Below are positions 4,915 through 61,533 of a stretch of 64,000 nt of DNA, piece after piece. The translations under genes were made by a program, and so were the position numbers. Origin of the DNA: Candidatus Bathyarchaeota archaeon (GTDB lineage Archaea > Thermoproteota > Bathyarchaeia > TCS64); NCBI GenBank assembly GCA_016783455.1, contig JADHWN010000001.1:41930-105929 (forward strand), in the 5' to 3' direction. The first letter of the stretch is position 1, and the number at the start of each line of letters is the position of its first letter. The notes beneath the pieces are model-generated. The model made no database searches, was not told the origin of the DNA, and saw only the letters and a list, made by a program, of their open reading frames with translations.

Positions 4915-6357
4915 ATGTCAGGTGCCAAAGACGGTTATCTCGACGTCGAAGCCTTCTACGACAACGATTCAGTTCTAATCCGGCTCGACGGCAAGGACTA
5001 CCGCATCGAGTACCCCGAGGAGGTCTGGAGCCCCCTCAGGGATGAGGTTAAGGCCTCCATCGTAGACCACCTGGCCTTCCTAGCCACCAACTATCTCCCA
5101 TTAGTCGCCGAGAAGACGGGGGTGAGGTATAACACCCGCCTGCCGATGTTCGACTCCTTCTCCTTCAAGAGCAACGCCATGGACATGCCCTCAAGCGCCG
5201 TCCTCGACTGGAAGAAACCACATGACTATGTAAGGGACTACCTGAACCTCGACTTCGTCTTCAGCCCCGAGAGGCCCATAGTGTGGAGGGAGACCTTCGA
5301 GCCGGAAAACAGGGCGATTATATCCTTCACTTCGGGAAAGGAGAGCCTCCTCACCCTCGCCATCTGCCTCGAGCTCGGGCTGGAGCCCATCCTGATCAAC
5401 ATCGTGGAGCCCTCCAACACTTACGAGAGGGGACATAAAGCCGAGATCCTCGAGAAGATCAACGAGGAGTTCGGCATAGGCTACTACACCGTCCCCAACC
5501 AGGTGGGGCTCTTCCACGACGCCAAGCACATGGGCCTGAGGCCCAGCGCCCTGGGCTGGGGGAACCAGCTAATGTACTACCTCTTCATCTACCTCCCCTT
5601 CATAATCCACCACAGGGCAAAGTACGTCTTCTACGGCAATGAGCACAGTTGCGACTTCGAGGTTGATGGCTCAGAGGGCTTCCGTAACAACTTCTGCTAC
5701 GACCAGAGCAGCCACTGGACCATCCAGCAGGACATCATGCTGCGTACCCTGACTGGAGACTCTGCGAGCGTGGGGAGCCTCGTCGGCCCCCTCAACGAGA
5801 TAGCGGTAGTCAAGTGCCTCCACGAGGGCTACCCGGAGCTGGCGAAGTACCAGATGTCATGCTTCTGCGAGGACGAGGTCACCCGGGAGCACAGGTGGTG
5901 CTGCAACTGCTCGAAGTGCGCCAGGAACTACGCCTTCATCAAGGCCATAGGAGGGGACCCTCAGAGGGTGGGTTTCTGGCTCGACATGTTCAGCGATGAT
6001 TGCATAGGCCTCTACGCGGCCATGGATGGCAAGGAGACATATGGGTTCGACAGGAGCGGCCTCGGGAGGGAGGAGCAGGAGCTGGCGCTCCTCATGGCGT
6101 GCGAGAGGGACCCTGAGAACCCTTTCCTGAGGGAGTTCATGGCGAAGATCGATCTCGGTACCTCAGGCGAGAACCCCGGCGACCCATTGGACGCCTTGTA
6201 TGAGTACTACTTCACGCCCCAGGAGTACCTCGCGATACCCGAAGAGCTGAAGGAGCAGGTGTACGATATCTACAACAGGCTTCTGAAAACCCAGAGTGAG
6301 ACGCCCTCAGAGTCTCCTACCCGTCAAGACGGCCACGAAAGTCCTCTCTCCGGATGA
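4915..6357 (+). CDS. Uncharacterised PP-loop-like / PAPS-reductase-like ATP pyrophosphatase-family protein, paralog A. It has a conserved QueC-like C-terminal Cys cluster.
   Basis: 480 aa. Degenerate PP-loop IISFTSGKESLLTLAI (compare SGGKDS). Cys cluster MSCFCEDEVTREHRWCCNCSKCARNY. It is homologous along its whole length to the 7360-8718 product, with shared N-terminal I/VEYP-E-W and LPL-KTG blocks. Confidence 0.55.
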   Translation: MSGAKDGYLDVEAFYDNDSVLIRLDGKDYRIEYPEEVWSPLRDEVKASIVDHLAFLATNYLPLVAEKTGVRYNTRLPMFDSFSFKSNAMDMPSSAVLDWKKPHDYVRDYLNLDFVFSPERPIVWRETFEPENRAIISFTSGKESLLTLAICLELGLEPILINIVEPSNTYERGHKAEILEKINEEFGIGYYTVPNQVGLFHDAKHMGLRPSALGWGNQLMYYLFIYLPFIIHHRAKYVFYGNEHSCDFEVDGSEGFRNNFCYDQSSHWTIQQDIMLRTLTGDSASVGSLVGPLNEIAVVKCLHEGYPELAKYQMSCFCEDEVTREHRWCCNCSKCARNYAFIKAIGGDPQRVGFWLDMFSDDCIGLYAAMDGKETYGFDRSGLGREEQELALLMACERDPENPFLREFMAKIDLGTSGENPGDPLDALYEYYFTPQEYLAIPEELKEQVYDIYNRLLKTQSETPSESPTRQDGHESPLSG

Positions 6358-21246: not shown

Positions 21247-22059
21247 CTAGGCTTTTGTCGCCTTGATGCTGTACATGAGGGGTAGGCCGTATCCGGGCAT
21301 GTCGTGGTAGCCATCCTCCCTCCTCTCCATGAAGGCCATCTGGGTGCCGTCGACGCTGTAGGGGTACTCCCCCATCTCGGTGACGGTGAGGCCTGCGGTG
21401 ATCAGGGCGTTCACCACCTCGCTCACGGGATGGGCCCAGTTGTAGGTCCCCCAGTTCTCCACCTTGGCGTCCTGATCGGCGTATGTATTTTCGGACTCAT
21501 AGTAGTCGGGCTCCTCCCCCTGCCAGTAGCTGTACTTGACCTTGAACTCGGAGGGATCCTCAAAGTCGAAGACCCACATGAAGGGGTGGAACTCGGCGAC
21601 GAAGAAGGTGCCCCCGGGCTTGAGGTATCGGGAGACGATTCGGGCCCACTCCCCCATGTCGGGGAGCCAGCAGAGGGCACCGTAGCTCGTGAAGACGATA
21701 TCGAACTCGGCGTCGAGGTTCTCCGGCAGGTCATAGACGTTGCAGCAGACAAACTCAGCGTCGACGCCTATCTTCTTCGCGATCTCCCGTGCAAGCTCGA
21801 TGCCCGTCTCGCTGAAGTCAACGCCAGTCACCTTAGCCCCGAGCCGGGCCCAGCTCAGTGTGTCGAGGCCGAAGTGGCACTGGAGGTGGAGGAGGCTCTT
21901 CCCGGAGACGTCGCCGAAGGCCTCCAGCTCGACGCTGTGGAGGCTGTTCTTCCCAGCGATGAATCCCTCTAGGTCGTACTCCTGGGAGGCGGCGTGGATC
22001 GCCACCAGCTCGTCCCACCTCTTCCTGTTTACATCGTAGTACTTCTCCACGGCGTTCAC
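21247..22059 (-). CDS. Class I SAM-dependent methyltransferase, paralog 1.
   Basis: 270 aa. SAM motif I LLHLQCHFGLD and motif post-I VTGVDFSE are present. Confidence 0.75.
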   Translation of the reverse strand: MNAVEKYYDVNRKRWDELVAIHAASQEYDLEGFIAGKNSLHSVELEAFGDVSGKSLLHLQCHFGLDTLSWARLGAKVTGVDFSETGIELAREIAKKIGVDAEFVCCNVYDLPENLDAEFDIVFTSYGALCWLPDMGEWARIVSRYLKPGGTFFVAEFHPFMWVFDFEDPSEFKVKYSYWQGEEPDYYESENTYADQDAKVENWGTYNWAHPVSEVVNALITAGLTVTEMGEYPYSVDGTQMAFMERREDGYHDMPGYGLPLMYSIKATKA

Positions 22060-28282: not shown

Positions 28283-29260
28283 ATGACCATCGACCTATCC
28301 GGCGTCTTCGACGTGACCGAGATCTGGGCGGCCCGGAAGAGGATCTCGGGGATCGTCTACAGGACGCCGCTCGTCTACTCCAGCGGCCTCAGCGAGAGGA
28401 CGGGGAGCCAGGTCTACCTGAAGATGGAGTGCTGGCAGAGGTGCGGGTGCTTCAAGGTGAGGGGGGCCGTGAACCACGTCTCGTCCCTGACGCCCGAGGA
28501 GAGGGGGCGGGGGCTGGTCACCGCCTCCAGCGGGAACCACGCGCTGGCCGTGGCCTTCGCCTCGCAGCTGTTCGGGGATCATCCGACCAGGATCTACGTC
28601 CCGGAGGACGTCGACCCCGCTAAGGTGAAACGGATTCTGGCCTGGGGTCCGGACCTCGTGTACCACGGCAGGAGCTTCCAGGAGACCTTCGACGAGGCGC
28701 GGCGATACGCTAAGGAGAACGGGTCAGTTTTCGTTCACAGCCACGCGGATCCCAAGGTGATCGCTGGGCAGGGCACCATCGGCCTGGAGGTCATGGAGGA
28801 CCTACCCGACGCCGAGGCGATCATCGTCCCAATAGGTGGGGGAGGGCTGGTCTCGGGGATATCGTCGGCGGTGAAGACCGTCTCGGAGGAGGTCAAGGTC
28901 TACGGCGTGGAGCCGACGGCCGCCCCGGGGGCCTACAGGTCCCTGAGGGAGGGGGTGTGCCATGAGACTCTGGATGTGAGTGAGAGCATCGCCGACGGAT
29001 TGCTGGGGGGGTTCGGGAGGCTGCCCTTTGAGATCTGCAGGCGGACGGTGGACGACACGTTCCTAGTCGATGATGGGGAGATCGTGGAGGCCATGGCTGC
29101 GTTCCAGCAGGAGGAGCAGGTGATGGTGGAGCCCGCTTCGTCGGTGGGGCTCGCTGCCATGCTCTCCGGTAAGATCAGGTTGCAGGACAGGAAGGTCGTG
29201 CTGGTGGTCACGAGCAGAAACATCGATGCGTCAAGATACAACCAGCTCATTAAACTCTAA
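28283..29260 (+). CDS. Threonine/serine dehydratase (threonine ammonia-lyase-like, PLP fold-type II).
   Basis: Start at MTIDLSG. The PLP-lysine motif CFKVRGAVN (compare SFKIRGA) and the glycine loop IVPIGGGGLVSGI are both present. Confidence 0.8.
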   Translation: MTIDLSGVFDVTEIWAARKRISGIVYRTPLVYSSGLSERTGSQVYLKMECWQRCGCFKVRGAVNHVSSLTPEERGRGLVTASSGNHALAVAFASQLFGDHPTRIYVPEDVDPAKVKRILAWGPDLVYHGRSFQETFDEARRYAKENGSVFVHSHADPKVIAGQGTIGLEVMEDLPDAEAIIVPIGGGGLVSGISSAVKTVSEEVKVYGVEPTAAPGAYRSLREGVCHETLDVSESIADGLLGGFGRLPFEICRRTVDDTFLVDDGEIVEAMAAFQQEEQVMVEPASSVGLAAMLSGKIRLQDRKVVLVVTSRNIDASRYNQLIKL

Positions 29261-29303
29261 CATTAATATTTCAGTCACACCTAGAACCCCACAGGTGTAA
29301 CTC

Positions 29304-29554
29304 ATGAGCAAAGTTATAGAGTACACCAGGGACATCTTCGGAGACGAAGACGAGTACAGGTGCTGCTACCGCGGCTACCTCGGCAACAAGTACGCTTCCT
29401 CGTCCTCTCCAACAAACGCCTCCTCTTCCTCCACGAGAAGGGCATCTCATCCGACTTCGACAAGATAGTGGATGTCCCCTACGACGAGGTCGCCGACTGC
29501 AGCTGCGTCGACCGCAACCTCATCGCCATTAAAACCATAGAGAAGTTTCGTTAA
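29304..29554 (+). pseudogene. Frameshifted paralog of the small bacterial-PH-domain-like protein encoded at 32771-33082.
   Basis: Frame 1 reads MSKVIEYTRDIFGDEDEYR...GNKYA. It then switches by +1 near 29395 to ...FLVLSNKRLLFLHEKG...IVDVPYDEVAD, which is the 29360-29554 ORF. Together these recapitulate MSKVIEYTKGILGDEDQFK...ILCNQRLLFIHEKG...ILEIPYDRVQEY of the intact paralog. This is either a single-nucleotide indel or a sequencing error. Confidence 0.5.
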
Positions 29555-29624
29555 ATGACGAAAATTTCACTAATTAGCGAAAGTATTTATGAGTCGGATG
29601 TTAGTAAAGTAGCATGGACATCGA

Positions 29625-30260
29625 ATGGCTATGAAACTTACATCCAAGAAATCATACAGAGTCATAGAGCACCTGCTCAAGCAACCCGAGAGCAGCCAAC
29701 TGGGGCTCTCAAACGAGACAGGGGTAGCCCTGGGACACGTGAACAAGATAATCAACTACATGCACGACCTGAACATGGTCTCCAAAAAGTCCCGAAGCTA
29801 CATCCTAACGGACCCCCTCCGACTGCTGGAGAAGATCAGCTTCGAGCGCCCCCTCAAACGGCTGGAGACCACAACGTTCCGCCTTCCCACAACCTCAATC
29901 GTGGAGAGCGAGGAGATCTTGAACAATGCCTGTAATAAAAACAACGTCGACTACGCCCTGACATCCTTCAGCGGCCTAAGACGCTACTACGAGTACCACA
30001 TATCATACCCCTCCATCCACGCCTACGTATCAGACCCAGGGATCGAGACGAAGATAGAGCACGGCGAAGGCGCCATACCCGTCACCCTCCTCAAACCAGA
30101 CAGGCCCGAGATACTCGTCAACTCCCTTGAGATCGACGGACTACGCGCCTGCGACAGGATCCAGATCGTCGTCGACCTGTTCTCAAGCGGATACGGCAGG
30201 GACGCCGCCATGAAGTTCCTAGAGGTCATCCAGCATGGGACAGAGGAACATACTAGCTGA
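29625..30260 (+). CDS. Winged-HTH regulator, AbiEi-like putative antitoxin.
   Basis: 211 aa. N-terminal HTH (LGLSNETGVALGHVNKIINYMHDLNMV). It overlaps the downstream nucleotidyltransferase gene by 26 nt. Confidence 0.45.
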   Translation: MAMKLTSKKSYRVIEHLLKQPESSQLGLSNETGVALGHVNKIINYMHDLNMVSKKSRSYILTDPLRLLEKISFERPLKRLETTTFRLPTTSIVESEEILNNACNKNNVDYALTSFSGLRRYYEYHISYPSIHAYVSDPGIETKIEHGEGAIPVTLLKPDRPEILVNSLEIDGLRACDRIQIVVDLFSSGYGRDAAMKFLEVIQHGTEEHTS

Positions 30261-31029
30261 CCACTCCTACCGGGAGCTCCTCAGCCTACTCGACTGGTTC
30301 TACCTCCACGGACCCATCCCCATCATCATAGGCGGCTGGGCTGTCTTCCTCTACAACTCATATCTCGGATCAGCGGACATCGACCTCGTAGGCCCTAGCA
30401 TGGGCGGCCTCTTCAATAACACCCTTGAGGGCTTCGAGCGCAGCCAGGGCTACGAAGCGGTCACAACCGACAGGTTAGGCCTGCAGACGAGCTTCAGGAA
30501 GCCCGTGATAGAAAACGGGGAGATAGTGGGCCACGTCCAGATCGACGCGTGCACCTACGAGCAGGACACCGGGGGCTTCCACGAGGACCCCTCCATGAAG
30601 CTCCCGTACGCCCTGTGCGCCGAAGCCGACCTCCGCTCCCACGTAAAACTGGACAGCAAGAGAGAGGCCTACATCCCAAGGAAGACCCTGCTCCTCCTCT
30701 ACAAACTCAAAGCCCTCAGGGACAGAACCCACGACCTCAGGACAAAAGGCCCGATACTCGGTTCCGAGAGGAGGAACTGGCTACGCGACAAACGCATAAA
30801 AGACGGAGCAGATCTCATGGCACTGCTGGACCCCCAGCCGAGAACCTGCACCCTAGCAGAGGAACTGGACACAAACCTACTGACCAAGATAATCGAAAAC
30901 CATTCCCTCCAGTTCACCCTGGAAAGCCTAGAAGAACTGCCGAACATGGAGGAAGCACTCAGCCTGTACAGAAACGCAAGCCGAGAGCAAGTAGCAGATT
31001 GGGTAAAAGACACGGTAACACGTAGCTAG
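30235..31029 (+). CDS. AbiEii/DUF1814-like nucleotidyltransferase, putative toxin.
   Basis: 264 aa. IIIGGWAVFLYNSYLGSADIDLVGP matches the AbiEii KGGTAL...R-x-S-x-DID-h nucleotidyltransferase signature, a minimal-NTase G[GS]...D-h-D-h pattern. Confidence 0.5.
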   Translation: MGQRNILADHSYRELLSLLDWFYLHGPIPIIIGGWAVFLYNSYLGSADIDLVGPSMGGLFNNTLEGFERSQGYEAVTTDRLGLQTSFRKPVIENGEIVGHVQIDACTYEQDTGGFHEDPSMKLPYALCAEADLRSHVKLDSKREAYIPRKTLLLLYKLKALRDRTHDLRTKGPILGSERRNWLRDKRIKDGADLMALLDPQPRTCTLAEELDTNLLTKIIENHSLQFTLESLEELPNMEEALSLYRNASREQVADWVKDTVTRS

Positions 31030-31499
31030 ACAAAACACCATTCCAGACACTGAAAGCCTTTGGTACAACGACACCTACAAGGAAAATACAGGTGAAACAA
31101 ACAATCCCACAGTGAAAAATACGCCAAACGATAAAAGAAACCTGAAAACAGCCCCTCCCAATCCGATGCCAGGCAAAAACACGGTCCATTCCCAGAAAAA
31201 CTATCTGAGGGGGGAGGGGGGGGTCATGCATCCGCCTATGAAAAACGCCCCTGCAGACGAAAGGAACCCCGGAAAACCCCCGACACGACCCCGTTCATAC
31301 CAAAAGGGGTACCTATTCATACCAAAAACACGCTCAAAACCCCTCAACGGAACAGTGAAAACACCACACCCAACACAACAGACCTCGCACGAAAAAAACC
31401 CCACGGAACGCTTATCCCCTGCCAGCCACACGCGAAAAAAACGCTTATCATATGTCACCACTCACAACCCCCAAATACACCCGCAGCCACACTACAACC
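31030..31499. repeat. A/C-rich (+ strand) low-complexity noncoding tract 1, internally repetitive.
   Basis: Almost devoid of T and poor in G on the + strand. Internal direct repeats include ttcataccaaaa (twice), acagtgaaaa (twice) and acgcttatc (twice). It contains G6-A-G8-TCATGCATCC at 31209-31233. Confidence 0.6.
31209..31233 (+). repeat. Repeat motif GGGGGGAGGGGGGGG-TCATGCATCC, copy 1. A G-quadruplex-capable run followed by a palindromic ATGCAT core.
   Basis: The same motif recurs at 43324-43349 as G8-A-G7-TCATGCATCC. Confidence 0.7.
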
Positions 31500-32549
31500 A
31501 TGAGACTCAACACCCTACCCAGGGCAGGCCTAGCGGTCACCCCTACACCCCTCCAGCCCCTCCCCAACCTCACCGAGCACCTCGGAGGCCCCACCATCCT
31601 CGTCAAACGCGACGACCTCACAGGCCTCGCATTCGGAGGCAACAAGGCCCGCAAGCTCGACTACCTCATGGGAGACGCCCTCCAGAAGAAGGCTGACATC
31701 ATCGTCACGGGCGCCGGATTCCACAGCAATTGGTGCACCCAGACTGCCGCAGCCTGCTGCAAGCTCGGCCTCCCCCTCATCCTCGTCAAGAGCGGCCCCC
31801 AGGACGGATACGACCCCGACCAGTGGGACGGCAACCACCTCCTCCACCACCTCTACGGAGCAGACATCACCATCCTCAAGGAGGGCTCAGGCCAACGCCG
31901 CCAGGAGATCACAGACGAGCTCCGCGCACAGGGCCGCAACCCCTACCTCATGCCCGTCGGAGGCTCCACCCCCCTCGGCGCCGCAGGATACGTCCACTGC
32001 ATGCTCGAACTCCTCACCCAGGCCGTGGACCAGACCACAGAGATCACCCACCTCTACCACGCCACCGGCTCAGGGGGCACCCAGACCGGACTCGCCCTCG
32101 GCGCCAAGGCCCTCAACACAGGCATCAAGGTCGTCGGCGTCTCCACCGGCTTCGGCGACAGCGCAAGACGCATAGAGAACCTCCTCAGGCTCTCCCACGA
32201 GACCGCCGAGTTCCTGGAGATCGAGACACGTCTCACCGAGGCCGACATCAACGTCCTCGACCAGTACAGCGAGGGATACGGATACGCCACCGAGGCCAAG
32301 ACAGAGGCAATAAAACTCCTCGCAGAGAAGGAGGGCCTCCTCATCGACCCCGTCTACACCGCCACCGCCATGGCAGCCCTCATCGACGACGCCCGGACAG
32401 GAAAGCTCACCGAAGACGACACAGCCGTATTCCTCCACACAGGAGGCACAGCAGCCCTATTCCCATACCGCGACACCCTCAAAGCCCACACCCAGGGGAA
32501 ACCCCTCCCATGGAAGATCCCCCAGTGGAATCCAGACTACACCGGGTAG
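31500..32549 (+). CDS. ACC deaminase / D-cysteine desulfhydrase family PLP enzyme.
   Basis: Start at MRLNTLPR. ILVKRDDLTGLAFGGNKARKLDYLM holds the PLP-lysine in the G-G-N-K-x-R-K-L-E/D context. The glycine loop is HATGSGGTQTG. Codon third positions are almost exclusively A or C. Confidence 0.75.
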   Translation: MRLNTLPRAGLAVTPTPLQPLPNLTEHLGGPTILVKRDDLTGLAFGGNKARKLDYLMGDALQKKADIIVTGAGFHSNWCTQTAAACCKLGLPLILVKSGPQDGYDPDQWDGNHLLHHLYGADITILKEGSGQRRQEITDELRAQGRNPYLMPVGGSTPLGAAGYVHCMLELLTQAVDQTTEITHLYHATGSGGTQTGLALGAKALNTGIKVVGVSTGFGDSARRIENLLRLSHETAEFLEIETRLTEADINVLDQYSEGYGYATEAKTEAIKLLAEKEGLLIDPVYTATAMAALIDDARTGKLTEDDTAVFLHTGGTAALFPYRDTLKAHTQGKPLPWKIPQWNPDYTG

Positions 32550-32770
32550 AACCCACAAAGAAGACAGAACCCAAACCCGAGAACCCCAGAAACCTCCCTA
32601 ATAAATGATAAGAAGAGAGGGACAGGAGAGAAGTGGCCTCTGCAGGAGGACCCTGCCCCCTCCAACCGTAGAACACCCAAAACCCCCTTAAGAGCATGAT
32701 GGGCAACAAAACCTAACCAACCCCTCCAAAATTATAATAAACATAAAACCCAATATGTTCAGGTGCTTAA
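32550..32770. repeat. A/C-rich (+ strand) low-complexity noncoding tract 2.
   Basis: aacccacaaagaagacagaacccaaacccgagaaccccagaaacc... has the same skewed composition as tract 1. Confidence 0.5.
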
Positions 32771-33082
32771 TTGAGCAAGGTAATTGAGTACACGAAGGGG
32801 ATCCTGGGCGACGAAGACCAGTTCAAGACCAGCTTCAGGGGGACCCTCGGCAACAGCTTCGGCTACATCATCCTATGCAACCAACGCCTCCTCTTCATCC
32901 ACGAGAAGGGCACAGGAGGGTTCGACAAGATCCTCGAGATCCCGTACGACCGCGTACAGGAATACGGATTCCCTGAGCCCAACCGACTCAGCATCACCCA
33001 GAAAGAAGGTAACACGAACGAGATAGTGGTCGCTGGCTCCACCCTGTTCCTGAAGATGAGCTTAAAAGAGCTCATACCTTAA
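32771..33082 (+). CDS. Small bacterial-PH-domain-like (bPH/DUF1696-like) protein.
   Basis: 103 aa with a TTG start. GYIILCNQRLLFIHEKG...ILEIPYDRVQEY resembles the YokE-like bPH core. This is the intact paralog of the 29304-29554 pseudogene. Confidence 0.5.
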   Translation: MSKVIEYTKGILGDEDQFKTSFRGTLGNSFGYIILCNQRLLFIHEKGTGGFDKILEIPYDRVQEYGFPEPNRLSITQKEGNTNEIVVAGSTLFLKMSLKELIP

Positions 33083-33106
33083 AAATCACCTATTTTTCCC
33101 ATACCC

Positions 33107-33123
33107 TGAATAACCACCCAACC
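33107..33123 (+). repeat. 17-nt exact repeat TGAATAACCACCCAACC, copy 1. Copy 2 is at 43355-43371.
   Basis: An exact match between two A/C-rich intergenic tracts 10 kb apart. Confidence 0.6.
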
Positions 33124-33189
33124 AGGGCATACCCCTCCCCACACAAAGGACATAACATAAGACCTATGCCACCCACAACACGAGTGGAG

Positions 33190-33519
33190 GAGGTGCAGCG
33201 ACGGCCCCCCAGGGCTCAAGGGCTCACCCACGGACAGGGGCGCACGACCCCCCTCAGGCTCGGGACCCCGCGAGCGCCAAACGTCCAGGCTTAGGCCGCT
33301 CCCTCCCGGGCCTCACCGGTTCACCCGACTACAGCCCCCACGCCCCCCTACGAGGGCGCAGAGAACAACCGCCGACCCCGCGGGACAAGCCCTCGACGGA
33401 GAGCCGCACGTCTTACCCGCAGGCTTCACCCCATCACACCGAGGTTACTGACCCCTCCTATAGCCCGTTTGAAGGCAAGGGGAAGGGCTAGCTCCCGGTC
33501 CTACCCGCCGCTGCACCAA
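33190..33519 (-). ncRNA. Signal recognition particle RNA (archaeal 7S / SRP RNA) candidate.
   Basis: The minus-strand RNA contains CCGGUGAGGCCCGGGAGGGAGCGGCCUAAGCCUGG. This closely parallels the universally conserved SRP helix-8 region of E. coli 4.5S, CCAGGUCAGGUCCGGAAGGAAGCAGCCAAGGC, including a GNRA-type GGGA tetraloop. The 5' GGUGCAGCGGCGG pairs with the 3' CCGUCGCUGCACC to form the long terminal helix. Length is about 326 nt. The region is GC-rich and noncoding. Confidence 0.65.
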
Positions 33520-33553
33520 CCACAACGCAGCCCGACGATAAAACCGTTACGCA

Positions 33554-34417
33554 CTAGAGGATCGGCACCAGACCGAACTTAACAAGGCTCAGAAGCAGGT
33601 TAGAGACCATCAGCGCCAGGAAGCTGAACATAGTCATCCGCTCCAGAACCCTGCCCCACCCCGGCTTCGTCGCCAGATACTCCCTCACCATCTGCCCCCC
33701 ATCCAGCGGATAGATGGGTAGCATGTTCACCATCGCCAGGTTAATCGACAGAAAGTAAAGCCAGTTCAGGAACACACCCACCACCCGGGGCAGGCTTCCC
33801 CCCACCACGGAGAAGACACCCACCACCAGCAGCCCCGTCACCAGGTTCACCAGGGAACCGGACGCGAAGACCCGCAGCTTAGACATCAGCCCAGCCCTCC
33901 CCAGGGACTCCTCATCGGGCTCCACGGCCCCCCCGAAGGTCACCACCGCCACCAGCAGCGCCGCCGACCTCACCTCGATCCCCTCAACCGCGCACATCAC
34001 CCCGTGGCTCAGCTCATGGAGAAGGATCACCACCCCCGCCGCAGCCAGGAACCAGACCATGCTCTGAAACTGGATGGTCACCCCCGGGATCAGGGGCATC
34101 ACCGGAGACGCCTCGGCCGGCACGTAGAGGAACCTGTAAAGATTAAGGAACAGCATGTATGTCATGAACGCCACCTGACCGAAGAAGGAGGCCACACCCA
34201 CGTTCCCCACCACCCTCCAGAGCCCCGGACGCCAGCTCCCCACACGGATCAGCACCGAGTTCAACCGCGTCGACTTATACATCGCGTAGAGGGGATGAAG
34301 CTCAACCCCGAACCTCTCCAGCTTCAGGAACCTCGCCAACAAGTAGAAGACGAACCACCCCACAACTAGAAGACCTAGAGTAGCGTACGTCTCATACCAC
34401 ATGGCCAAACTTGACAC
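33554..34417 (-). CDS. Site-2 protease (M50 family) intramembrane metalloprotease.
   Basis: 287 aa, polytopic. HExxH appears in VILLHELSHGVMCA. The LDG motif appears in NMLPIYPLDGGQM. Confidence 0.75.
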   Translation of the reverse strand: MSSLAMWYETYATLGLLVVGWFVFYLLARFLKLERFGVELHPLYAMYKSTRLNSVLIRVGSWRPGLWRVVGNVGVASFFGQVAFMTYMLFLNLYRFLYVPAEASPVMPLIPGVTIQFQSMVWFLAAAGVVILLHELSHGVMCAVEGIEVRSAALLVAVVTFGGAVEPDEESLGRAGLMSKLRVFASGSLVNLVTGLLVVGVFSVVGGSLPRVVGVFLNWLYFLSINLAMVNMLPIYPLDGGQMVREYLATKPGWGRVLERMTMFSFLALMVSNLLLSLVKFGLVPIL

Positions 34418-34474
34418 CAGCGAGCTTTACTAATAAGCGAAACCCCCCTTTAAATACCGTTTGAGGAGGGAGCG

Positions 34475-35158
34475 ATGACAGACAACATCGAGGTCGAGTA
34501 CACCCAGGAACACTGGGAACTCCTCAGCAGGCTCAGGGACGAGGCCAAGACTCTCACCCGCCCCCTCGCGGAGGCTCACATCGAGGCCCTCGTCTACGGC
34601 AGCATCGCCCGCGGAGACGTCCACACCGGAAGCGACATCGACGTATTCATCCCCAGCCCACCCGCCCCCACCATCCTCGAAACCCTCATCAACCGCACAG
34701 GCATCCAGACCGCCAACAGGGAGATCATTCAGGCCACACCCACGTACGCCGCCAAGGGCTACATCCATGCAGCCGAAAACAGGAGCTACTCCTTCCCCCT
34801 CGTCCAGCTTCGAGCCCACGAACGGGAGTTCTACGACTTCGCGGGGTCCCTCACCCCCAAACAGCTACAGGATGGAACACGGGTCCCAGGAGTCGACAAG
34901 CACCTAAAGCTAATAGAGCCCACGGAACGAGGGCACACCGAGACCCCCATCCAGGGCAGGGAGGGGGTCGTCGCAAAGACCCTGGGCGTAGGCGTCACCA
35001 TCGTCCTAGACAGGGTCCGAACCCTCCAGCGCAGGGAGAGGATAGGCAGGACCGGGGTCTACATAAAACGCCCCCTCGCCCCCGACGAGACGTTCGGGGA
35101 TGTCTACCAGCAGCTGGCACGGACAAGGCCCGCTCTGAGACGCAGAATGAGAATGTAA
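34475..35158 (+). CDS. Pol-beta-superfamily nucleotidyltransferase-domain protein.
   Basis: LVYGSIARGDVHTGSDIDVFIPS matches the GS-x9-13-D-h-D nucleotidyltransferase motif. The C-terminal roughly 120 aa is uncharacterised. Confidence 0.6.
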   Translation: MTDNIEVEYTQEHWELLSRLRDEAKTLTRPLAEAHIEALVYGSIARGDVHTGSDIDVFIPSPPAPTILETLINRTGIQTANREIIQATPTYAAKGYIHAAENRSYSFPLVQLRAHEREFYDFAGSLTPKQLQDGTRVPGVDKHLKLIEPTERGHTETPIQGREGVVAKTLGVGVTIVLDRVRTLQRRERIGRTGVYIKRPLAPDETFGDVYQQLARTRPALRRRMRM

Positions 35159-35176
35159 AAAAAGGGAATTATGAGG

Positions 35177-36385
35177 CTACTCGAGGTCCTTGAAGACCCT
35201 CACCCTGAGGCCCCTGGGGACCCGGACGCCCTCGGCGAGGCGCTCCCCTATGAGGGTCGCGATCCCCCGCTCCATGGCGACGTCCACGAGGCGCCCGGTG
35301 ACGATGCCGTCGAAGACGACCGTCTCCACATCCGCCTCGTTTCTTAACCGCTCCACGAGCTCCATGACGGGCACCTCACCGATCTTGCCACCGTCCTTCT
35401 TCACCAAGACGCCCTCGAGGGTCCCCTTCAGCCCCTTGGCGACCTCGGCCAGCTCCTTGAGCATCTCGGCATCCTTAGGGTCGACCTCGGCCGCACGGGC
35501 GGGCTTCGCCACTCGAGCAGGCCTAGCTGCACGGGCAGGCTTGGCCTCCGCCGGCTTTGCGCTCTCGGCCTCCGCGAAGGGCACCCTGGCCGCCAAGGCG
35601 GCCCGTATCTCGGCTGGGGTGAGGTCCTCGACCTCCTTGCCCCTGGGGGCCCTGGCGACGTACTTGGGCTGGGCTACTTGGGTCAGCTCCTTGAGGATGA
35701 GATCTCCGCCCCTGTCCCCGTCGAGGAAAGCGGTTATCTCCTTCTTCCTCTTCACGAGGTTTATGATGGTGCGGGGGACCTTCACGCCCTCCAGGGCGAT
35801 GATGTCCGTGTAGCCGCTCTTAAGGAGGTTGTTCACGTCCGCCCTGCCCTCGACGATAAGTATCTCATTCGCCTTGCTGAGGTCGGGGGTAGCGGTTAGC
35901 TTCTCACGTCCGTAGGTCACTGCCTTGACCGTCTTGTCCTCCCTGGAGACCTCGGTGAGGAGCTTCTCGATGTCCTGGGTCTCGGTTACCACCCAGTCCC
36001 TCATGAGCTCCTTAGCCCGCTTCATTATCTGCTCCCGCTTGTCAAAGCGGACGTCAGAAATCTGTTCCACGGAGACCTTCGCCTCGCATGGCCCTACCCG
36101 GTCAACCGTCTCCATCGCCGCTGCGATGATGGCGGTCTCCGCCCTGTCCAGGCTGGAGGGGGCGACGATCCTCCCCTCGGTCCGATCCTTCGCGGACTTC
36201 AGGTCGATGTCTATCCTTCCGATCTTGCCGGACCTCTGGAGCTCCCTGAGCTCAAAGTTCTTAGGGAAGAGCCCCTCGGTCTGGCCGAAGATGGCCCCGA
36301 TGACGTCGTGCTTCTCGACGACGCCGTCGACGACGAATTTCGCCTCAATTATGTACTTTGCGCTATGCTTCTCTTTTGAACCCAT
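35177..36385 (-). CDS. dnaG: Archaeal DnaG-type primase (Toprim domain).
   Basis: Start at MGSKEKHSAKYIIEAKFVVDG. The Toprim block is EILIVEGRADVNNL...ITAFLDGDRGGDL. The Ala/Lys/Pro-rich low-complexity linker KPAEAKPARAARPARVAKPARAAE is typical of archaeal DnaG C-termini. Confidence 0.8.
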   Translation of the reverse strand: MGSKEKHSAKYIIEAKFVVDGVVEKHDVIGAIFGQTEGLFPKNFELRELQRSGKIGRIDIDLKSAKDRTEGRIVAPSSLDRAETAIIAAAMETVDRVGPCEAKVSVEQISDVRFDKREQIMKRAKELMRDWVVTETQDIEKLLTEVSREDKTVKAVTYGREKLTATPDLSKANEILIVEGRADVNNLLKSGYTDIIALEGVKVPRTIINLVKRKKEITAFLDGDRGGDLILKELTQVAQPKYVARAPRGKEVEDLTPAEIRAALAARVPFAEAESAKPAEAKPARAARPARVAKPARAAEVDPKDAEMLKELAEVAKGLKGTLEGVLVKKDGGKIGEVPVMELVERLRNEADVETVVFDGIVTGRLVDVAMERGIATLIGERLAEGVRVPRGLRVRVFKDLE

Positions 36386-38813: not shown

Positions 38814-39620
38814 TCATGCAGGCTTCACGGCCTTCACAGAGAACATCAGGGGCAGCTGGTAATTCTTTCTCTTGAACCTCCGGTAGCCGTCATCGTCCGT
38901 CTCCATGTTTGAGTAGATCTCGTCGACGCTGTACGGGTACTCCCTGAACTCCTTCAATGTCAGGCCAGCCCCGATGAGGGAGTTGATGATGCGGCTTATG
39001 GGGTGGGCCCATTCGTAGGTTCCCTTGTTCTCGATGAACGCGTCCCTGTCTGCGTAGCTTCCCTGGACCTCGTAGTAGGATGGCTCACGGTTGTGCCAGT
39101 AGCTATACCTCACTACCAGATCCTCGCCCTCCTGCTCGAAGACCCACATGAAGGGGTGGAACTCCGCCATGTAGAAAGTGCCTCCTGGCTTCAGGTAATG
39201 GGAGACGATCTCAGCCCAACCCTCGATGTCGTGGAGCCAGTTGATGACGCCGTAGCTGGTGTAGACGACGTCGAACTCTCCGTCGACGTGCTCGGGTAGG
39301 TCGTATATATTGGCGTGGATGAACTGGGCGGGGATCCTTAACTGCTCCGAGAGGTGCCTAGCCAGCTGTATGGCGTTCTCGGAGAAGTCGACGCCAGTGG
39401 CTTCGGCTCCCAGCCTCGCCCATGAGAGGGTGTCGAGGCCGAAGTGGCACTGGAGGTGGAGGAGGCTCTTCCCGGAGACATCGCCGAGGGCTTCCAGCTC
39501 TATATCGTGGAGGGAGCTCTCTCCGTCAAGGAATCCCTCCAGGTTGTAATGCCTAGACTTGGAGTGGATGTCCACGAGCTCGTTCCAGTACTTGAGGTTA
39601 GTCTTGTAGAACTTCTCCAT
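38814..39620 (-). CDS. Class I SAM-dependent methyltransferase, paralog 2.
   Basis: Start at MEKFYKTNLKYW. It parallels the 21247-22059 product, with an identical 27-aa block GDVSGKSLLHLQCHFGLDTLSWARLGA. Confidence 0.7.
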   Translation of the reverse strand: MEKFYKTNLKYWNELVDIHSKSRHYNLEGFLDGESSLHDIELEALGDVSGKSLLHLQCHFGLDTLSWARLGAEATGVDFSENAIQLARHLSEQLRIPAQFIHANIYDLPEHVDGEFDVVYTSYGVINWLHDIEGWAEIVSHYLKPGGTFYMAEFHPFMWVFEQEGEDLVVRYSYWHNREPSYYEVQGSYADRDAFIENKGTYEWAHPISRIINSLIGAGLTLKEFREYPYSVDEIYSNMETDDDGYRRFKRKNYQLPLMFSVKAVKPA

Positions 39621-41685: not shown

Positions 41686-43263
41686 TTGGCTGAGACGGGG
41701 GGAGTAAAGTCCAATAGAAAGATAATCATCGTCGCAGTCGTAATCATCGTTTCCTCAATTGGGCTGTACCTATGGTACAACTGGGGTAGTGCAGTCAAGT
41801 ATGAGGTGTACGACAGGTTTGGGTTCTCCTTTGACTACCCCAAGGGGATGGAGTTTTCAGAGACTGGTTTTGGTGACTGGAGCCTCGCTTCAGTGAATTC
41901 GGGCGTTGTTCAAGGGATGTTAATGGGGGAAAGCCCAGAGTTGATTGGCGTCATCTGGTTCCACAATGAGTCTGCGCCGGTTTTTGAAGATTTTCTCGAT
42001 AGGGCCTTCACGGAGCTGGGTGAGGGGACCGAGGTCGATGAGAGGAATGAGTTGGTAACTTCAACTAAGGATGGCTACGATATGCTGACGCAGACGTTCA
42101 CACTATACATCGGAGACGACAAGACGATCGGCAAGGTGGGGACCTGGTACGACTCCGGGGCTCAAAGGTCCTACATGGTTTTCCACATCAGGGCCTCGAC
42201 GTTACCAGAGAAGAGGATGGAGACGGAATTCAACAAGCTTCTGGGATCTTTCGAAAGCTCCTACGAGGCTCTGTTGAAGATAACTCTGGAATCCTACTGG
42301 CCGACAGATGAATGGCGGACAGCGGTTCCAGAGGATGTAGGTATCTACTCAGGGCCTCTAGACGACATGCTTGAGGAGATCAGTAGAAGAGGCATCGGCG
42401 TAGATAGCGTCACCGTGGTAAGGGACGGATACGTCGTTCTCGACGAGTACTTCTCACCCTACGAAGGAGAGCCGCATATAATCTACTCGTGCACTAAGAG
42501 CGTGGTCTCGACCCTCATCGGCATCGCCATCGAGGAGGGGTACATTGAAGACCTCGACGTGAGGATGCTTGACCTCTTCCCGGACAGGACGGCGGGCAGC
42601 ATGAGCGCATGGAAGGAGGAGATGACCCTCAGGGACCTCCTCACCATGACGGCGGGCTTCAATGCCCGTGACTCATACCTCTACGAGTGGGAGGGACTGT
42701 ACACCATGCATGACAGCACGGACGCCCTCCAGTACGTCCTGGACCTCCCTGTTATCGAGGAGCCGGGAACCCGGTTCGAGTACACCAACGGCGTCTCCCA
42801 CCTCCTATCGTGCATCATCACCGAGAAGACAGGTATGAGCGCCCTGGAGTACGGCAGGGAACGCCTGTTCGAGCCCCTGGGCATCCACGATGTGGAATGG
42901 CACAACGACTCCATAGGGAGGAACTGGGGCTACAGCCGGATCTACATCACCCCCCACGACATGGCGAAGCTCGGCTACCTCTTCCTCAACAAGGGTCAAT
43001 GGGATGGAACCCAGATCGTGCCAGGGGAGTGGGTTGAGGAGGCCACCACCAAGCACGTGGACGCGACGATCATGGACGGGTACGGCTACCAGTGGTGGGT
43101 CAGCGGAGAGGGATACTACTCAGCGGTGGGCCACAAGGGGCAGTTCATCCACGTCGTCCCAGACCTCGACCTCGTGGCGGTCTTCACCAGCCGAAATGAA
43201 GTGGACTTCGATAGAATACTATCTCTACTGGAGACCTACGTCATACCCGCTGTCGTCCCCTAA
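41686..43263 (+). CDS. Serine-hydrolase beta-lactamase/transpeptidase-like family protein with an N-terminal TM anchor and an extra N-terminal domain.
   Basis: 525 aa. SxxK active site IIYSCTKSVVSTLIG. A Y-x-N-like motif in FEYTNGVSHLL. An HKG/KTG-like motif in AVGHKGQ. Confidence 0.75.
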   Translation: MAETGGVKSNRKIIIVAVVIIVSSIGLYLWYNWGSAVKYEVYDRFGFSFDYPKGMEFSETGFGDWSLASVNSGVVQGMLMGESPELIGVIWFHNESAPVFEDFLDRAFTELGEGTEVDERNELVTSTKDGYDMLTQTFTLYIGDDKTIGKVGTWYDSGAQRSYMVFHIRASTLPEKRMETEFNKLLGSFESSYEALLKITLESYWPTDEWRTAVPEDVGIYSGPLDDMLEEISRRGIGVDSVTVVRDGYVVLDEYFSPYEGEPHIIYSCTKSVVSTLIGIAIEEGYIEDLDVRMLDLFPDRTAGSMSAWKEEMTLRDLLTMTAGFNARDSYLYEWEGLYTMHDSTDALQYVLDLPVIEEPGTRFEYTNGVSHLLSCIITEKTGMSALEYGRERLFEPLGIHDVEWHNDSIGRNWGYSRIYITPHDMAKLGYLFLNKGQWDGTQIVPGEWVEEATTKHVDATIMDGYGYQWWVSGEGYYSAVGHKGQFIHVVPDLDLVAVFTSRNEVDFDRILSLLETYVIPAVVP

Positions 43264-43323
43264 CCGCAGGTCCGAGAATCACAGTGGCATACAGAAACAC
43301 ACGTGTACGTGAAAGGGGGGGAG

Positions 43324-43349
43324 GGGGGGTCATGCATCCAAGCGTGAAT
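43324..43349 (+). repeat. Repeat motif G8-A-G7-TCATGCATCC, copy 2.
   Basis: A direct repeat of the 31209-31233 motif in the same orientation, 12.1 kb away. Confidence 0.7.
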
Positions 43350-43354
43350 AACCA

Positions 43355-43371
43355 CCCAACCGAGAAAAGGA
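43355..43371 (+). repeat. 17-nt exact repeat TGAATAACCACCCAACC, copy 2.
   Basis: Identical to 33107-33123. Confidence 0.6.
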
Positions 43372-43745
43372 CGCTGAAAACGACTCCAGACGAGTCAGAT
43401 TCAGCATAAAAACGTGATGATAAGGCCTGAATACAGGGTAAAACCAGGTGGGCGGACGCCCCTGTCCCTCTGGGCAAACCCACGGCCTCACAGATAGGAC
43501 AACGCCCCCCTCAGCCGAGCTCTCTCATCCCAGAGGATTCCGACGCCCGCCCTGCCCACCTGTGCCATGTCTGGGTAACCCCGAATCACAGGCAGCCCTC
43601 CCCGAGGTCCGTCTGCATGGTGCGTCGCCTGGCGGGCACATAAACAGGAACAGGCAGCCACACTTAACCTTTACAGATGGCGTAGGCAACACAACGGGCG
43701 ACAGACGGGAACCCTCAGGGAGGCAACTACACGGAGATGGAGGCC

Positions 43746-61352: not shown

Positions 61353-61533
61353 ATTTGGCCACTGAGATGGGTTGAGCGTTCTCGGGTTATAAGGGAAGCT
61401 CACCTCTGGCAATCACATGATGTGAGTAAAAGGTCTGAGTGGATGCAACCGTAAGTTCCTATGTCTTGGGATGACAGCCCAAGAAATATTAGCTGTGACT
61501 AATCTATGTGGACTCCGGACCTAAATTCAACCC

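Follow-up and report, generated by a model that had tools for sequence, protein, structure and literature searches.

The window analysed here, meaning the whole 64,000-nucleotide stretch of Candidatus Bathyarchaeota DNA, carries between about 31 and 44 kb a PLP-enzyme gene of the D-cysteine desulfhydrase/ACC-deaminase family, a bPH gene, an archaeal SRP RNA gene and a candidate RNA gene, which we call RNA-X. Four noncoding tracts in this region (tract 1, 31030-31499; tract 2, 32550-32770; tract 3, 33083-33187; tract 4, 43264-43745) had been singled out for their A/C-rich plus strand and shared exact motifs. The features are listed below, with repeat units assigned to their G/T-rich, U-tract-bearing strand, which is minus here, the A/C-rich strand being plus.

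31104-31200, minus strand: degenerate first unit of array 1, a body without a G-run (nhmmer unit profile, E=1.7e-10, profile positions 23-120)
31209-31350, minus strand: full unit of array 1 (nhmmer E=2.3e-32), with G6AG8 and TCATGCATCC at 31209-31233 on the plus strand and an A/C-rich body
31351-31470, minus strand: RNA-proximal module of array 1, with repeated AACGCTTATC and A7 runs (T7 on the minus strand)
31471-31496, plus strand: probable promoter/start region of the D-cysteine desulfhydrase/ACC-deaminase-family gene, outside the repeat, with a CCCAAATAC box; true start ATG 31497
32550-32770, no strand: ordinary intergenic spacer in the skew island, with an A/T-rich promoter-like box for the bPH gene; no family member
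33083-33187, minus strand: decayed, incomplete unit immediately behind the 3' end of the SRP RNA gene, without a G-run, keeping TGAATAACCACCCAACC (33107-33123) and AAAGGAC
33198-33511, minus strand: archaeal SRP RNA gene (Rfam RF01857, 108.6 bits against a gathering score of 96.5)
43315-43436, minus strand: full unit of array 2 (nhmmer E=6.1e-30), with G7AG7 and TCATGCATCC at 43315-43339, the 17-mer TGAATAACCACCCAACC at 43345-43361, then the body
43437-43643, minus strand: candidate unclassified structured RNA gene RNA-X, about 200 nt, with two long hairpins and the end CCUGGUUUU
43651-43680, minus strand: promoter-like box of RNA-X, AAAGGTTAAGTG, about 25-30 nt upstream of the conserved RNA

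Composition and shared motifs of the tracts

The initial annotation described the plus strand of the tracts as almost only A and C, which is too strong: A and C make up 72% of tract 1, 69% of tract 2, 72% of tract 3 and only 59% of tract 4, which contains 28% G because a G+C-rich, conserved RNA-like segment lies inside it. The A/C richness is a regional feature and not peculiar to the tracts, with plus-strand A+C staying at 0.56-0.71 all the way from about 29.2 to 35.2 kb, whether the DNA is coding or not and whichever strand its genes are on. What had been grouped together is a mixture of a repeat family, ordinary spacer and a candidate RNA gene within skewed DNA. The internal direct repeats are real (TTCATACCAAAA and AACGCTTATC, each present twice, and weaker repeats spaced 132-149 nt apart), as are the spurious low-complexity ORFs that the tracts were said to generate.

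The sharing of motifs also held up, with corrections to position and sequence. The first motif, a G-run followed by TCATGCATCC and containing the 6-bp palindrome ATGCAT, reads G6AG8-TCATGCATCC at 31209-31233, as annotated, and recurs at 43315-43339 rather than 43324-43349, where it reads G7AG7-TCATGCATCC and not G6AG8; the exact word common to the two copies is the 17-mer GGGGGGGTCATGCATCC (31217-31233 and 43323-43339). The second motif, TGAATAACCACCCAACC, lies at 33107-33123 as described, with its other copy at 43345-43361 rather than 43355-43371. The longest exact word shared by tracts 1 and 4, and likewise by tracts 3 and 4, is 17 nt, whereas dinucleotide-preserving shuffles of the tracts gave a longest shared word of 8-9 on average and 11-12 at most, so the sharing is far above chance. 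Tract 2 has no word above chance in common with the other tracts.

Tract 2 also gave no match to the unit profile at E<=1, its T-runs are not enriched, and it is collinear with a relative (L043) within an 86.7% match. At the other side of the PLP-enzyme gene, the CCCAAATAC box at 31471-31496 is probably its promoter, and this region is conserved in two relatives (L042, L043) whose similarity to the window starts at 31470 and 31442. The public call of the gene begins at 31452, inside the tract, and homologues of 348-350 aa, which fit ATG 31497, indicate that its start is mis-called. The 211-aa and 264-aa genes upstream of array 1 had no useful NCBIfam or PADLOC matches, and a promoter/terminator scan employed bacterial-type models, which are uninformative for an archaeon. 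Two larger-scale accounts of the region were rejected: att sites at 31208 and 43314 bounding a 12-kb element, given that housekeeping genes (among them GAPDH, TyrRS and SRP RNA) but no integrase lie between them, and a tandem duplication of PALP+bPH, because the two PLP enzymes are only 23% identical, which leaves only the bPH genes as paralogues.

A tandem, dispersed repeat of one Bathyarchaeia clade

Motif and profile comparisons show that a previously unreported intergenic repeat of about 130 bases, lineage-specific and both tandem and dispersed, makes up the tracts at 31104-31470 and 43315-43436 and, as a remnant, the one at 33083-33187. A dispersed family had been one of the initial suggestions; it stands for tracts 1, 3 and 4, of which tract 3 is a decayed fragment, and falls for 32550-32770. 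Read on its A/C-rich strand, the unit of about 130 nt begins with an interrupted G-run (G5-8 A G7-9), followed by TCATGCATCC and an A/C-rich body with conserved A-runs and the blocks AAAGGAAC and GATCCGATTCA; read on the G/T-rich strand, it presents several U4-U7 tracts, GGAUGCAUGA at its end and then a C-run.

The degenerate unit of array 1 aligns with unit bodies from other loci, and the full unit has five T4+ runs on the minus strand. Array 1 matches the 3' flank of tRNA-Pro in the Bathyarchaeia MAG CAYONH01 (L011) at 87.6% identity over 267 nt, and the blastn match reaches 31473. The closest relative of the array is found behind tRNA-Pro in a different species, and the counterpart of its module at 31351-31470 abuts the 3' end of tRNA-Pro (L011, L027) or of SRP RNA (L042); since the module here abuts the probable PLP-enzyme promoter instead, array 1 (31104-31470) is an orphan copy. 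The decayed unit corresponds to a recognisable unit in a closed relative genome (L042 11065-11173, E=1.2e-10), which sits between the PLP-enzyme stop codon and the 3' end of the SRP RNA. The array 2 unit lies directly 3' of the RNA-like gene at 43437-43643 and has orthologues in four other species or strains.

Motif and profile scans turned up further copies and conservation in relatives. Searching 185,579 species genomes for the exact 17-mer gave two occurrences in one Bathyarchaeia MAG and also a match in a contig binned as Patescibacteria that itself matches Bathyarchaeia contigs, the remaining six matches being single and unrelated. A motif scan of metagenomes yielded 28 loci, about 20 of them with a conserved body, and the unit profile recognised 1-5 tandem units per locus with E-values to 1e-34. 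The family was recovered at 16 independent sites, and every contig comes from a narrow clade of uncultured Bathyarchaeia. The family is missing behind tRNA-Pro in Bathyarchaeia with 68-75% PGK identity (a comparison of PGK loci of other genomes, the PGK of CP070784.1 not being among the matches listed), and 2.9 million viral contigs held no member and one unrelated 16-mer match. Copies inside one genome are old, being about 60-75% alike. An archaeal replication origin (ORB) was considered for the repeats and rejected, as the copies are all direct and none inverted, and no Cdc6/Orc1 domain occurs among the annotated neighbours.

The long G-runs had been flagged both as possible assembly artefacts and as classic sites of phase variation. 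The first concern is removed by three further public assemblies (L001, L003 and L024, the last from a strain variant), all of which share the G6AG8 of the window. Phase variation is disfavoured by the setting of the two runs, which are intergenic, 51 and 180 nt past stop codons and at least 260 nt ahead of the next start, and lie outside promoter and ORF; in addition, G6AG8 is invariant in four assemblies of this population. Two samples of another species read C7 and C9 (L045, L046), a difference equally explicable as assembly noise.

Association and polarity with stable-RNA genes

At 7 of the 16 independent sites the unit follows closely on the 3' end of a stable-RNA gene, with identical polarity at all seven. 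Wherever such a gene adjoins the body, its sense strand coincides with the G/T-rich strand of the unit, and the array starts a few tens of nucleotides past its 3' end. The earlier remark that a minus-strand transcript would be GU-rich fits this arrangement, the polarity following the sense strand of the adjacent stable-RNA genes, here minus. Units were found 3' of 23S rRNA (L016, L017, L021), tRNA-Pro TGG (L011, L027), tRNA-Pro CGG (L026) and tRNA-Met (L035), as well as 3' of SRP RNA in the closed genome CP070784.1 and 3' of RNA-X. Loci reached through a neighbouring protein and not through the motif agree, namely PGK/tRNA-Pro in L045 and L046 and the SRP RNA flank in L042, where the SRP RNA was called by homology to the window and not by the Rfam threshold; the tRNA of L015 was called by eye only. 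There are only two stable-RNA genes in 72.5 kb of the host genome, both with a unit or remnant behind them, and the 8.5 kb of this sequence beyond the window contain neither RNA genes nor units.

For the other nine sites (window array 1, L043, three sites in L023, L028, L038, L039 and L035-3284), no stable-RNA gene was recognised next to the body. Several of these lie between co-directional protein genes for which the A/C strand is sense, the U-tracts facing no known transcript, and at L008 and L029 the unit is upstream of a tRNA encoded on the same strand as the A/C side. Where one contig has units at several sites, these all point the same way (window, L023, L035).

A candidate RNA gene next to array 2

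In comparisons with four other species or strains, identity is 92-99% in RNA-X and 77-85% at third codon positions of the adjacent gene. The consensus predicted by RNAalifold has 65 pairs, 2 compensatory changes and numerous G-U pairs that only the minus strand allows. The candidate had no Rfam match, whether in a window-wide search at gathering scores, within 29-45 kb at E<=10 or with 43400-43700 alone, and single-sequence folding of 43425-43665 on both strands gave z-scores near 0, so the support for RNA-X is comparative only. The promoter-like box at 43651-43680 is 81-97% conserved in the same relatives and resembles AAGGTTAAAAAC boxes upstream of tRNA-Pro in L047 and L049, which suggests that it is a putative RNA-X promoter.

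Discussion

We propose, as the most likely reading and with about an even chance of being right, that the cassette is a polar stack of oligo-U terminators. Such a stack would halt RNA polymerase as it leaves heavily transcribed stable-RNA genes and would shield the neighbouring, often convergent, gene. We infer this function because U4+ tracts are a known archaeal stop signal and also follow this genome's ordinary stop codons. In Methanococcus, two or more U4 tracts confer higher termination efficacy and form the minimal aCPSF1-binding element (PMC8716108). The G/U strand of the repeat carries 1-6 U4+ tracts per unit, with at least three in 20 of 22 units, while the opposite strand carries none; across 28 units 108 such tracts were observed against 64 expected, the shuffle maximum being 78. 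The A-run columns that encode them are conserved at 0.85 compared with 0.64 for other body columns (p=4e-5), and two A4 blocks are kept in 21 of 22 units. At 7 of the 16 independent sites, a transcription unit is followed at once by at least two sense-strand U4+ tracts; the other sites have no known transcript upstream. T4-T8 runs occur in each of ten RNA-gene 3' flanks inspected, with a C-run at the end in eight, and host genes with a free 3' flank likewise finish with a C-rich stretch plus T5-7.

Several observations count against this proposal. They include the nine sites at which no stable-RNA gene adjoins the body and the tRNA arrangement at L008 and L029. Among close relatives the unit body diverges about like third codon positions (0.78-0.89 against 0.77-0.85), so constraint is weak over most of the unit, and its most conserved part, the G-run with TCATGCATCC, has no role in a simple oligo-U model. 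Furthermore, the flank of the SRP RNA in the window has lost most of its unit, with one T5 and one T4 run left.

A selfish or neutral dispersed repeat, whether a non-autonomous element or a product of ectopic-recombination spread, that is tolerated at or targeted to stable-RNA 3' flanks and has no host function seems to us unlikely, albeit a serious contender. It would account for the narrow clade distribution, ending behind tRNA-Pro at the PGK distances given above, for the presence at no fewer than 16 different sites, some without an RNA gene, for arrays of 1 to 5 units and for the near-neutral drift of the unit body, and the likeness of array 1 to the tRNA-Pro flank of another species in a different context implies that arrays move. 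Nonetheless, the examined flanks have no terminal inverted repeats, obvious target-site duplication or transposase/integrase, the viral contigs contain no copy, and the age of within-genome copies speaks against recent bursts, while the strict polarity to RNA genes and the conservation of A-run columns point to selection. The MITE-like family suggested initially is not supported, given the lack of terminal inverted repeats and of a nearby transposase. No such repeats occur in 30980-31520 or 43250-43480, where there is a weak 70% G-run/C-rich match and, in one subtype, an internal 14-nt hairpin; unit-flanking sequences differ between loci, with no flanking direct repeat evident in the family alignment, and no annotated flank bears a transposase or integrase domain. 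Random low complexity arising from the strand-biased composition of the skew island, with motifs shared by chance, has a likelihood close to nil. The entire plus strand is indeed A/C-rich regionally, in coding and noncoding DNA, and the tract at 32550-32770 is just that, but the 17-mers far exceed the shuffles, about 20 homologous loci exist in other species with profile E down to 1e-34, and most family loci are skewed only locally, extended skew being seen only around L023; for tracts 1, 3 and 4 this explanation is already refuted by conservation in relatives. The idea that the tracts are scars of the process that produced the skew is not supported either: the units carry specific conserved blocks, and the island itself is ancestral, being found in a closed relative genome in which the PLP-enzyme gene is not preceded by a tract. 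Nor is there support for the long leaders or structured RNA put forward at the outset, as the tracts gave no Rfam match (all 64 kb searched at gathering scores, 29-45 kb at E<=10) and no consensus structure on either strand: across 22 units the RNAalifold consensus came to -3 kcal/mol with 4 pairs for the A/C strand and to no pairs for the G/U strand, and compensatory changes were absent.

The remaining explanations turn on the G-run and palindrome, for which an oligo-U stack offers no role. The cap might be a DNA-level element at which a dimeric protein binds the G-run and ATGCAT. Behind strongly transcribed RNA genes the complex would end transcription as a roadblock, insulate the neighbourhood or hold up replication forks, in analogy to the tandem TTF-I/Reb1 sites of eukaryotic rRNA genes; we regard this as improbable. 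The G-run with TCATGCATCC is the most invariant part, kept with 1-4 changes even in units not selected by the motif scan, the units form tandem arrays, the largest of which (5 units) lies behind 23S rRNA, and separate sites of one contig are constantly co-oriented. However, no candidate binding protein is linked to the arrays, and the conservation of the motif is partly ascertainment, as loci were found through it, and the palindrome is only 6 bp long. Alternatively, the functional strand may be the A/C-rich one, on which a non-template G-tract would form an RNA:DNA hybrid G-quadruplex and in this way end transcription of the protein gene upstream, or which would serve as a 3' UTR or leader without structure. 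In 14 of 21 arrays the G-run lies at most 273 nt from the end of a co-directional protein gene, none of the three window genes next to tracts has a T4+ run in the 100 nt around its stop codon, and ViennaRNA with its G-quadruplex option predicts a quadruplex for both window runs, of which G7AG7 at 43315 satisfies the four-G3 rule with 1-nt loops. There is a precedent in CSB II (G5-6AG7-8), which terminates transcription through a hybrid G-quadruplex (PMC3488243, PMC4176368, PMC5027508). Yet the neighbour on the G-run side is divergent in 7 of 21 arrays, the sense strand of L023 has its own T7 terminator after the unit, G6AG8 at 31209 is limited to two tetrads, and in several units the first G-run is shorter or replaced by A-runs; the enrichment behind RNA genes and the conserved A-runs would also be left unaccounted for, and we see only a slim prospect for this reading. 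Finally, the two faces might be combined in a mobile insulator, with U-tract terminators on one side and, on the other, a CSB II-like G-tract, possibly with a protein at ATGCAT, stopping opposite transcription or forks, which would have spread to stable-RNA 3' flanks in one Bathyarchaeia clade by a targeted, polar mechanism without inverted repeats or a known transposase. This composite is a speculative model to which we attach little likelihood.

Individual features of the repeat are found in a variety of known systems. The REP/BIME, ERIC and Correia elements found at the 3' ends of bacterial genes are lineage-specific short intergenic repeats, often located between convergent genes, whose copy number varies and some of which affect termination or transcript stability. 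The present repeat is likewise lineage-specific, short, intergenic and variable in copies per site. Those elements, however, are imperfect palindromes or inverted repeats that form hairpins, with REPs tied to RAYT transposases, whereas ours has no hairpin consensus on either strand and no inverted repeats, is strictly polar and favours stable-RNA genes. MITEs share its small size, noncoding nature and multiple dispersed copies, but the repeat here is tandem, its copies are old and diverged, and it lacks terminal inverted repeats, visible target-site duplication and a related transposase. Downstream of eukaryotic rRNA genes, tandem polar sites for TTF-I/Reb1 act as protein-dependent roadblocks, and there the factor is known. 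The arrays resemble such sites in being tandem, polar and placed behind the most heavily transcribed RNA genes, and differ in having no linked factor and in also following tRNA and SRP RNA genes.

Closest to the terminator proposal are the archaeal U4-tract terminators (aCPSF1/FttA), which also place several sense-strand U4+ tracts just downstream and terminate more strongly with more tracts (PMC8716108). The known ones are short and gene-specific, whereas those predicted here lie within a conserved, tandem, dispersed unit of about 130 nt that is confined to one clade and carries a G-run/ATGCAT cap. Human mitochondrial CSB II (G5-6AG7-8) has a near-identical interrupted G-tract, on the non-template strand for transcription in the A/C direction, but there the polymerase is of phage type, and CSB II works through a G-quadruplex shared by RNA and DNA and serves to prime replication (PMC3488243, PMC5027508). 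The main association of our repeat is with transcription from the opposite direction, and a similar response of an archaeal polymerase would be hypothetical.

In practical terms, the repeat explains why public gene calls include spurious ORFs and a wrongly placed start codon. It also marks stable-RNA 3' ends in uncultured genomes, and here pointed to a conserved, unclassified candidate RNA of about 200 nt that databases do not recognise. The unit gives a concrete sequence for archaeal termination assays, the G-tract/palindrome cap included. If the terminator proposal is true, an archaeal lineage packages termination signals as a reusable, repeated module behind its most-transcribed genes, and such signals would not always evolve gene by gene.

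Shared motifs and the setting of the tracts

The DNA of the window is archaeal. Contig NODE_70 (178 kb) of ENA assembly ERZ24794671 is nearly identical to it, and contigs of two other public metagenome assemblies are fully so; among named organisms, the nearest relatives are Candidatus Bathyarchaeota/Bathyarchaeia, one of them represented by the closed 2.30-Mb genome CP070784.1. No tRNA genes were found in the window, and the 8.5 kb past its right end hold neither RNA genes nor repeat units. The four noncoding tracts named by the initial annotation, together with the repeat units and RNA genes within or beside them, are as follows.

Tracts, repeat units and RNA genes in the window
31030–31499, tract 1
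31104–31200, degenerate unit without G-run, profile match
31209–31350, unit, profile match
32550–32770, tract 2
33083–33187, tract 3, a unit remnant below the profile threshold that keeps the 17-mer and AAAGGAC
33198–33511, minus strand, archaeal SRP RNA (Rfam)
43264–43745, tract 4
43315–43455, unit, profile match
43437–43643, minus strand, RNA-X, a candidate unclassified structured RNA

Both motifs described as shared between distant tracts exist, and their first copies stand as reported (31209–31233 and 33107–33123), while the coordinates for the second copies were 10 nt too high. The second copy of motif 1, a G-run leading into ATGCAT, lies at 43315–43339 and reads G7AG7, not G6AG8, the exact word common to both copies being GGGGGGGTCATGCATCC; that of motif 2 lies at 43345–43361. 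Words of 17 nt are shared between tracts, against a maximum of 11–12 nt in dinucleotide shuffles of the tracts, which is well beyond low-complexity composition. Tract 2, which shows no above-chance sharing with the others, is correctly described as random low complexity; for tracts 1, 3 and 4 that reading is refuted. The portrayal of a + strand made almost only of A and C is overstated for tracts 1–3 (69–72% A+C) and fails for tract 4 (59%, with 28% G).

A/C richness is not peculiar to the tracts, because the + strand is 56–71% A+C without interruption from ~29.2 to 35.2 kb (29200–35200). Third codon positions in this skew island follow the DNA strand and not the gene, with C3/A3-rich genes on the plus strand and a G3/T3-rich M50 peptidase gene on the minus strand. 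Orthologous genes in CP070784.1 carry the same island (PLP enzyme, SRP RNA, M50 peptidase and nucleotidyltransferase; A+C 0.60–0.65; locus L042, 10001–13500), and it is therefore ancestral. The suggestion that the tracts are scars of the process behind the skew is not supported, since in CP070784.1 the island is present and the PLP-enzyme gene has no tract upstream.

A narrowly distributed repeat family

When one genome for each of 185,579 species was scanned for the 17-mer, there were nine matches, two in one Bathyarchaeia MAG (CAYONH01), one in DATLAV010000049.1 (locus L009) and six single and unrelated. The first CAYONH01 match corresponds to window 31208–31473 (87.6% over 267 nt) with different flanking genes, and the second to 43317–43380. 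A metagenome scan yielded 28 loci, ~20 of them with the same A/C-rich body and conserved blocks after the motif, and the profile made from family sequences defines a unit of ~130 nt, present in 1–5 tandem copies per locus. The proposal of a dispersed repeat family is thus borne out, with copies in relatives, and the initial annotation is, overall, partly confirmed in its observation and partly supported in its interpretation. At the position in CP070784.1 equivalent to the remnant at 33083–33187 there is a recognisable unit (L042 11065–11173, E = 1.2e-10). The family is limited to a narrow clade, as more distant Bathyarchaeia (PGK 68–75% identical) carry tRNA-Pro without the unit. Searches of Rfam and the literature found no description of it.

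Locus L009 is labelled Patescibacteria group bacterium and bears a partial RNA-X paralogue as well as a unit; across the 233 nt compared around the unit it is identical to three contigs of Bathyarchaeia type (L025, L030 and L033), and it is probably misbinned.

G-run lengths vary from species to species. Phase variation at these runs, raised earlier, is unlikely, as they are intergenic and G6AG8 is the same in four assemblies, one of which represents a strain variant that has 12 SNPs elsewhere. Within one population, two samples gave near-identical contigs (L045 and L046, ~5470–5490) that differ in a unit's C-run (C7TC6 versus C9TC6), owing either to true slippage at the homopolymer or to noise in the assemblies.

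Placement behind stable-RNA genes

Units lie directly 3' of stable-RNA genes, identified with Rfam and ARAGORN, and it is always the unit's G/T-rich strand that is sense for the RNA gene.

RNA genes with a unit at the 3' side (L numbers, loci from other contigs)
23S rRNA: L016, L021 and L017 (five tandem units in L017)
tRNA-Pro(TGG): L011 (CAYONH01) and L027
tRNA-Pro(CGG): L026
tRNA-Met: L035
Intron-containing tRNA, recognised by eye only: L015
SRP RNA: L042 (CP070784.1), and as a remnant in the window
RNA-X, conserved RNA-like segment: the window and four other species or strains

With orthologous loci collapsed, a stable-RNA gene precedes the unit at 7 of 16 independent sites, in a single polarity, which is a strong enrichment because such genes are, by estimate, only a few percent of the genes of a 2.3-Mb archaeal genome. 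The same arrangement recurs at loci found through a neighbouring protein and not the motif, namely PGK/tRNA-Pro (L045, L046) and the SRP RNA flank (L042). At nine sites no RNA gene is recognised; L023 has three units flanked by co-directional protein genes for which the A/C strand is sense, and in L008 and L029 a tRNA lies downstream of the unit. The family is shown to be a tandem repeat of fixed polarity, dispersed among intergenic regions and enriched behind genes for stable RNAs.

Array 1 (31104–31470) is an orphan copy, related most closely to the tRNA-Pro flank in another species. The array's RNA-proximal module, AAAAAACGCTTATCAT ... CAGCCACAC, adjoins tRNA-Pro in L011 and SRP RNA in L042, whereas in the window it adjoins the PLP-enzyme promoter region; similarity to CP070784.1 begins at 31470. 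The public call for this D-cysteine desulfhydrase/ACC-deaminase-family protein (365 aa) starts at ATG 31452, within the repeat tract. Since the alignment with homologues (348–350 aa) begins at the ATG at 31497, codons 1–15 of the call (31452–31496) are probably untranslated.

RNA-X, and further repeats and paralogues in the window

RNA-X (~200 nt) has two long hairpins, a promoter-like box at 43651–43680, a UUUU 3' end and no Rfam match. It is 92–99% identical in four other species or strains, where neighbouring third codon positions are 77–85% identical, and it shows two compensatory pairs along with many G-U pairs that hold on the minus strand only. Its second hairpin has a partial paralogue in L033 (8190–8271).

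Two bPH-domain genes (29305–29556 and 32771–33082) form a paralogous pair sharing a 51-nt stretch (86% identical); the N-terminal part of the first (MSKVIEYTRDIFGDEDEY...) matches the second, and the match continues in another frame after an apparent frameshift near 29390. A 300-nt direct repeat (21566–21865 and 39136–39435, 72% identity) lies in two methyltransferase-family genes ~17.6 kb apart, probably paralogues. At 60414–61060 a 32-nt motif occurs seven times, mostly at 57-nt spacing, within the minus-strand ORF 60279–61412, which suggests a protein with 19-residue repeats.

Unit contents and possible function

The units have no Rfam match and no terminal inverted repeats were found. RNAalifold on 22 diverse units gave no RNA structure (–3 kcal/mol with four invariant pairs for the A/C strand, and no pairs for the G/U strand). 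What the G/U strand does carry is U4+ tracts, 1–6 per unit and at least three in 20 of 22 units, with none on the other strand; the 108 observed in 28 units compare with 64 expected from dinucleotide shuffles (maximum 78), and tract 1 has 15 against 9.1 (p = 0.001). Among close relatives the body drifts at about the rate of third codon positions. The A-run columns are its best-conserved part (0.85 versus 0.64, p = 4e-5) and two A4 blocks are retained in 21/22 units. T4–T8 runs occur in all ten RNA-gene 3' flanks examined, eight of which finish in GGATGCATGA plus a C-run, with another T5–T8 run after it in some cases, and genes of the window genome with a free 3' flank typically end in a C-rich stretch and then T5–T7. 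The terminator signal of Methanococcus is the U4 tract; at least two such tracts make up the minimal aCPSF1-binding element and increase the efficacy of termination (PMC8716108).

The repeat may thus be a stack of oligo-U terminators, a reading to which we give about an even chance and which leaves the G-run + TCATGCATCC cap unaccounted for. This cap is the most conserved piece of the unit, partly through ascertainment; units found without motif selection keep it with 1–4 changes. Another reading, which we consider quite improbable, makes the G-run/ATGCAT the centre of a protein-bound roadblock or a barrier to replication forks. Function on the A/C strand, such as a G-quadruplex stop for the upstream protein gene, is suggested by the striking likeness of the interrupted G-tract to human mtDNA CSB II (PMC3488243, PMC4176368, PMC5027508) and by G7AG7 being predicted to be G4-capable; however, the neighbour on the G-run side is divergent in 7/21 arrays and L023 carries a T7 terminator of its own past the unit; we rate this reading very unlikely.

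A selfish or recombination-spread repeat without host function is a lesser but appreciable possibility. The cassette is packaged like bacterial intergenic repeat families, yet lacks REP/BIME palindromes and MITE inverted ends, and in its proposed action comes closest to archaeal U-tract terminators. As such a terminator, the oligo-U stack would stop polymerases leaving heavily transcribed RNA genes and shield the next gene, which is often convergent.
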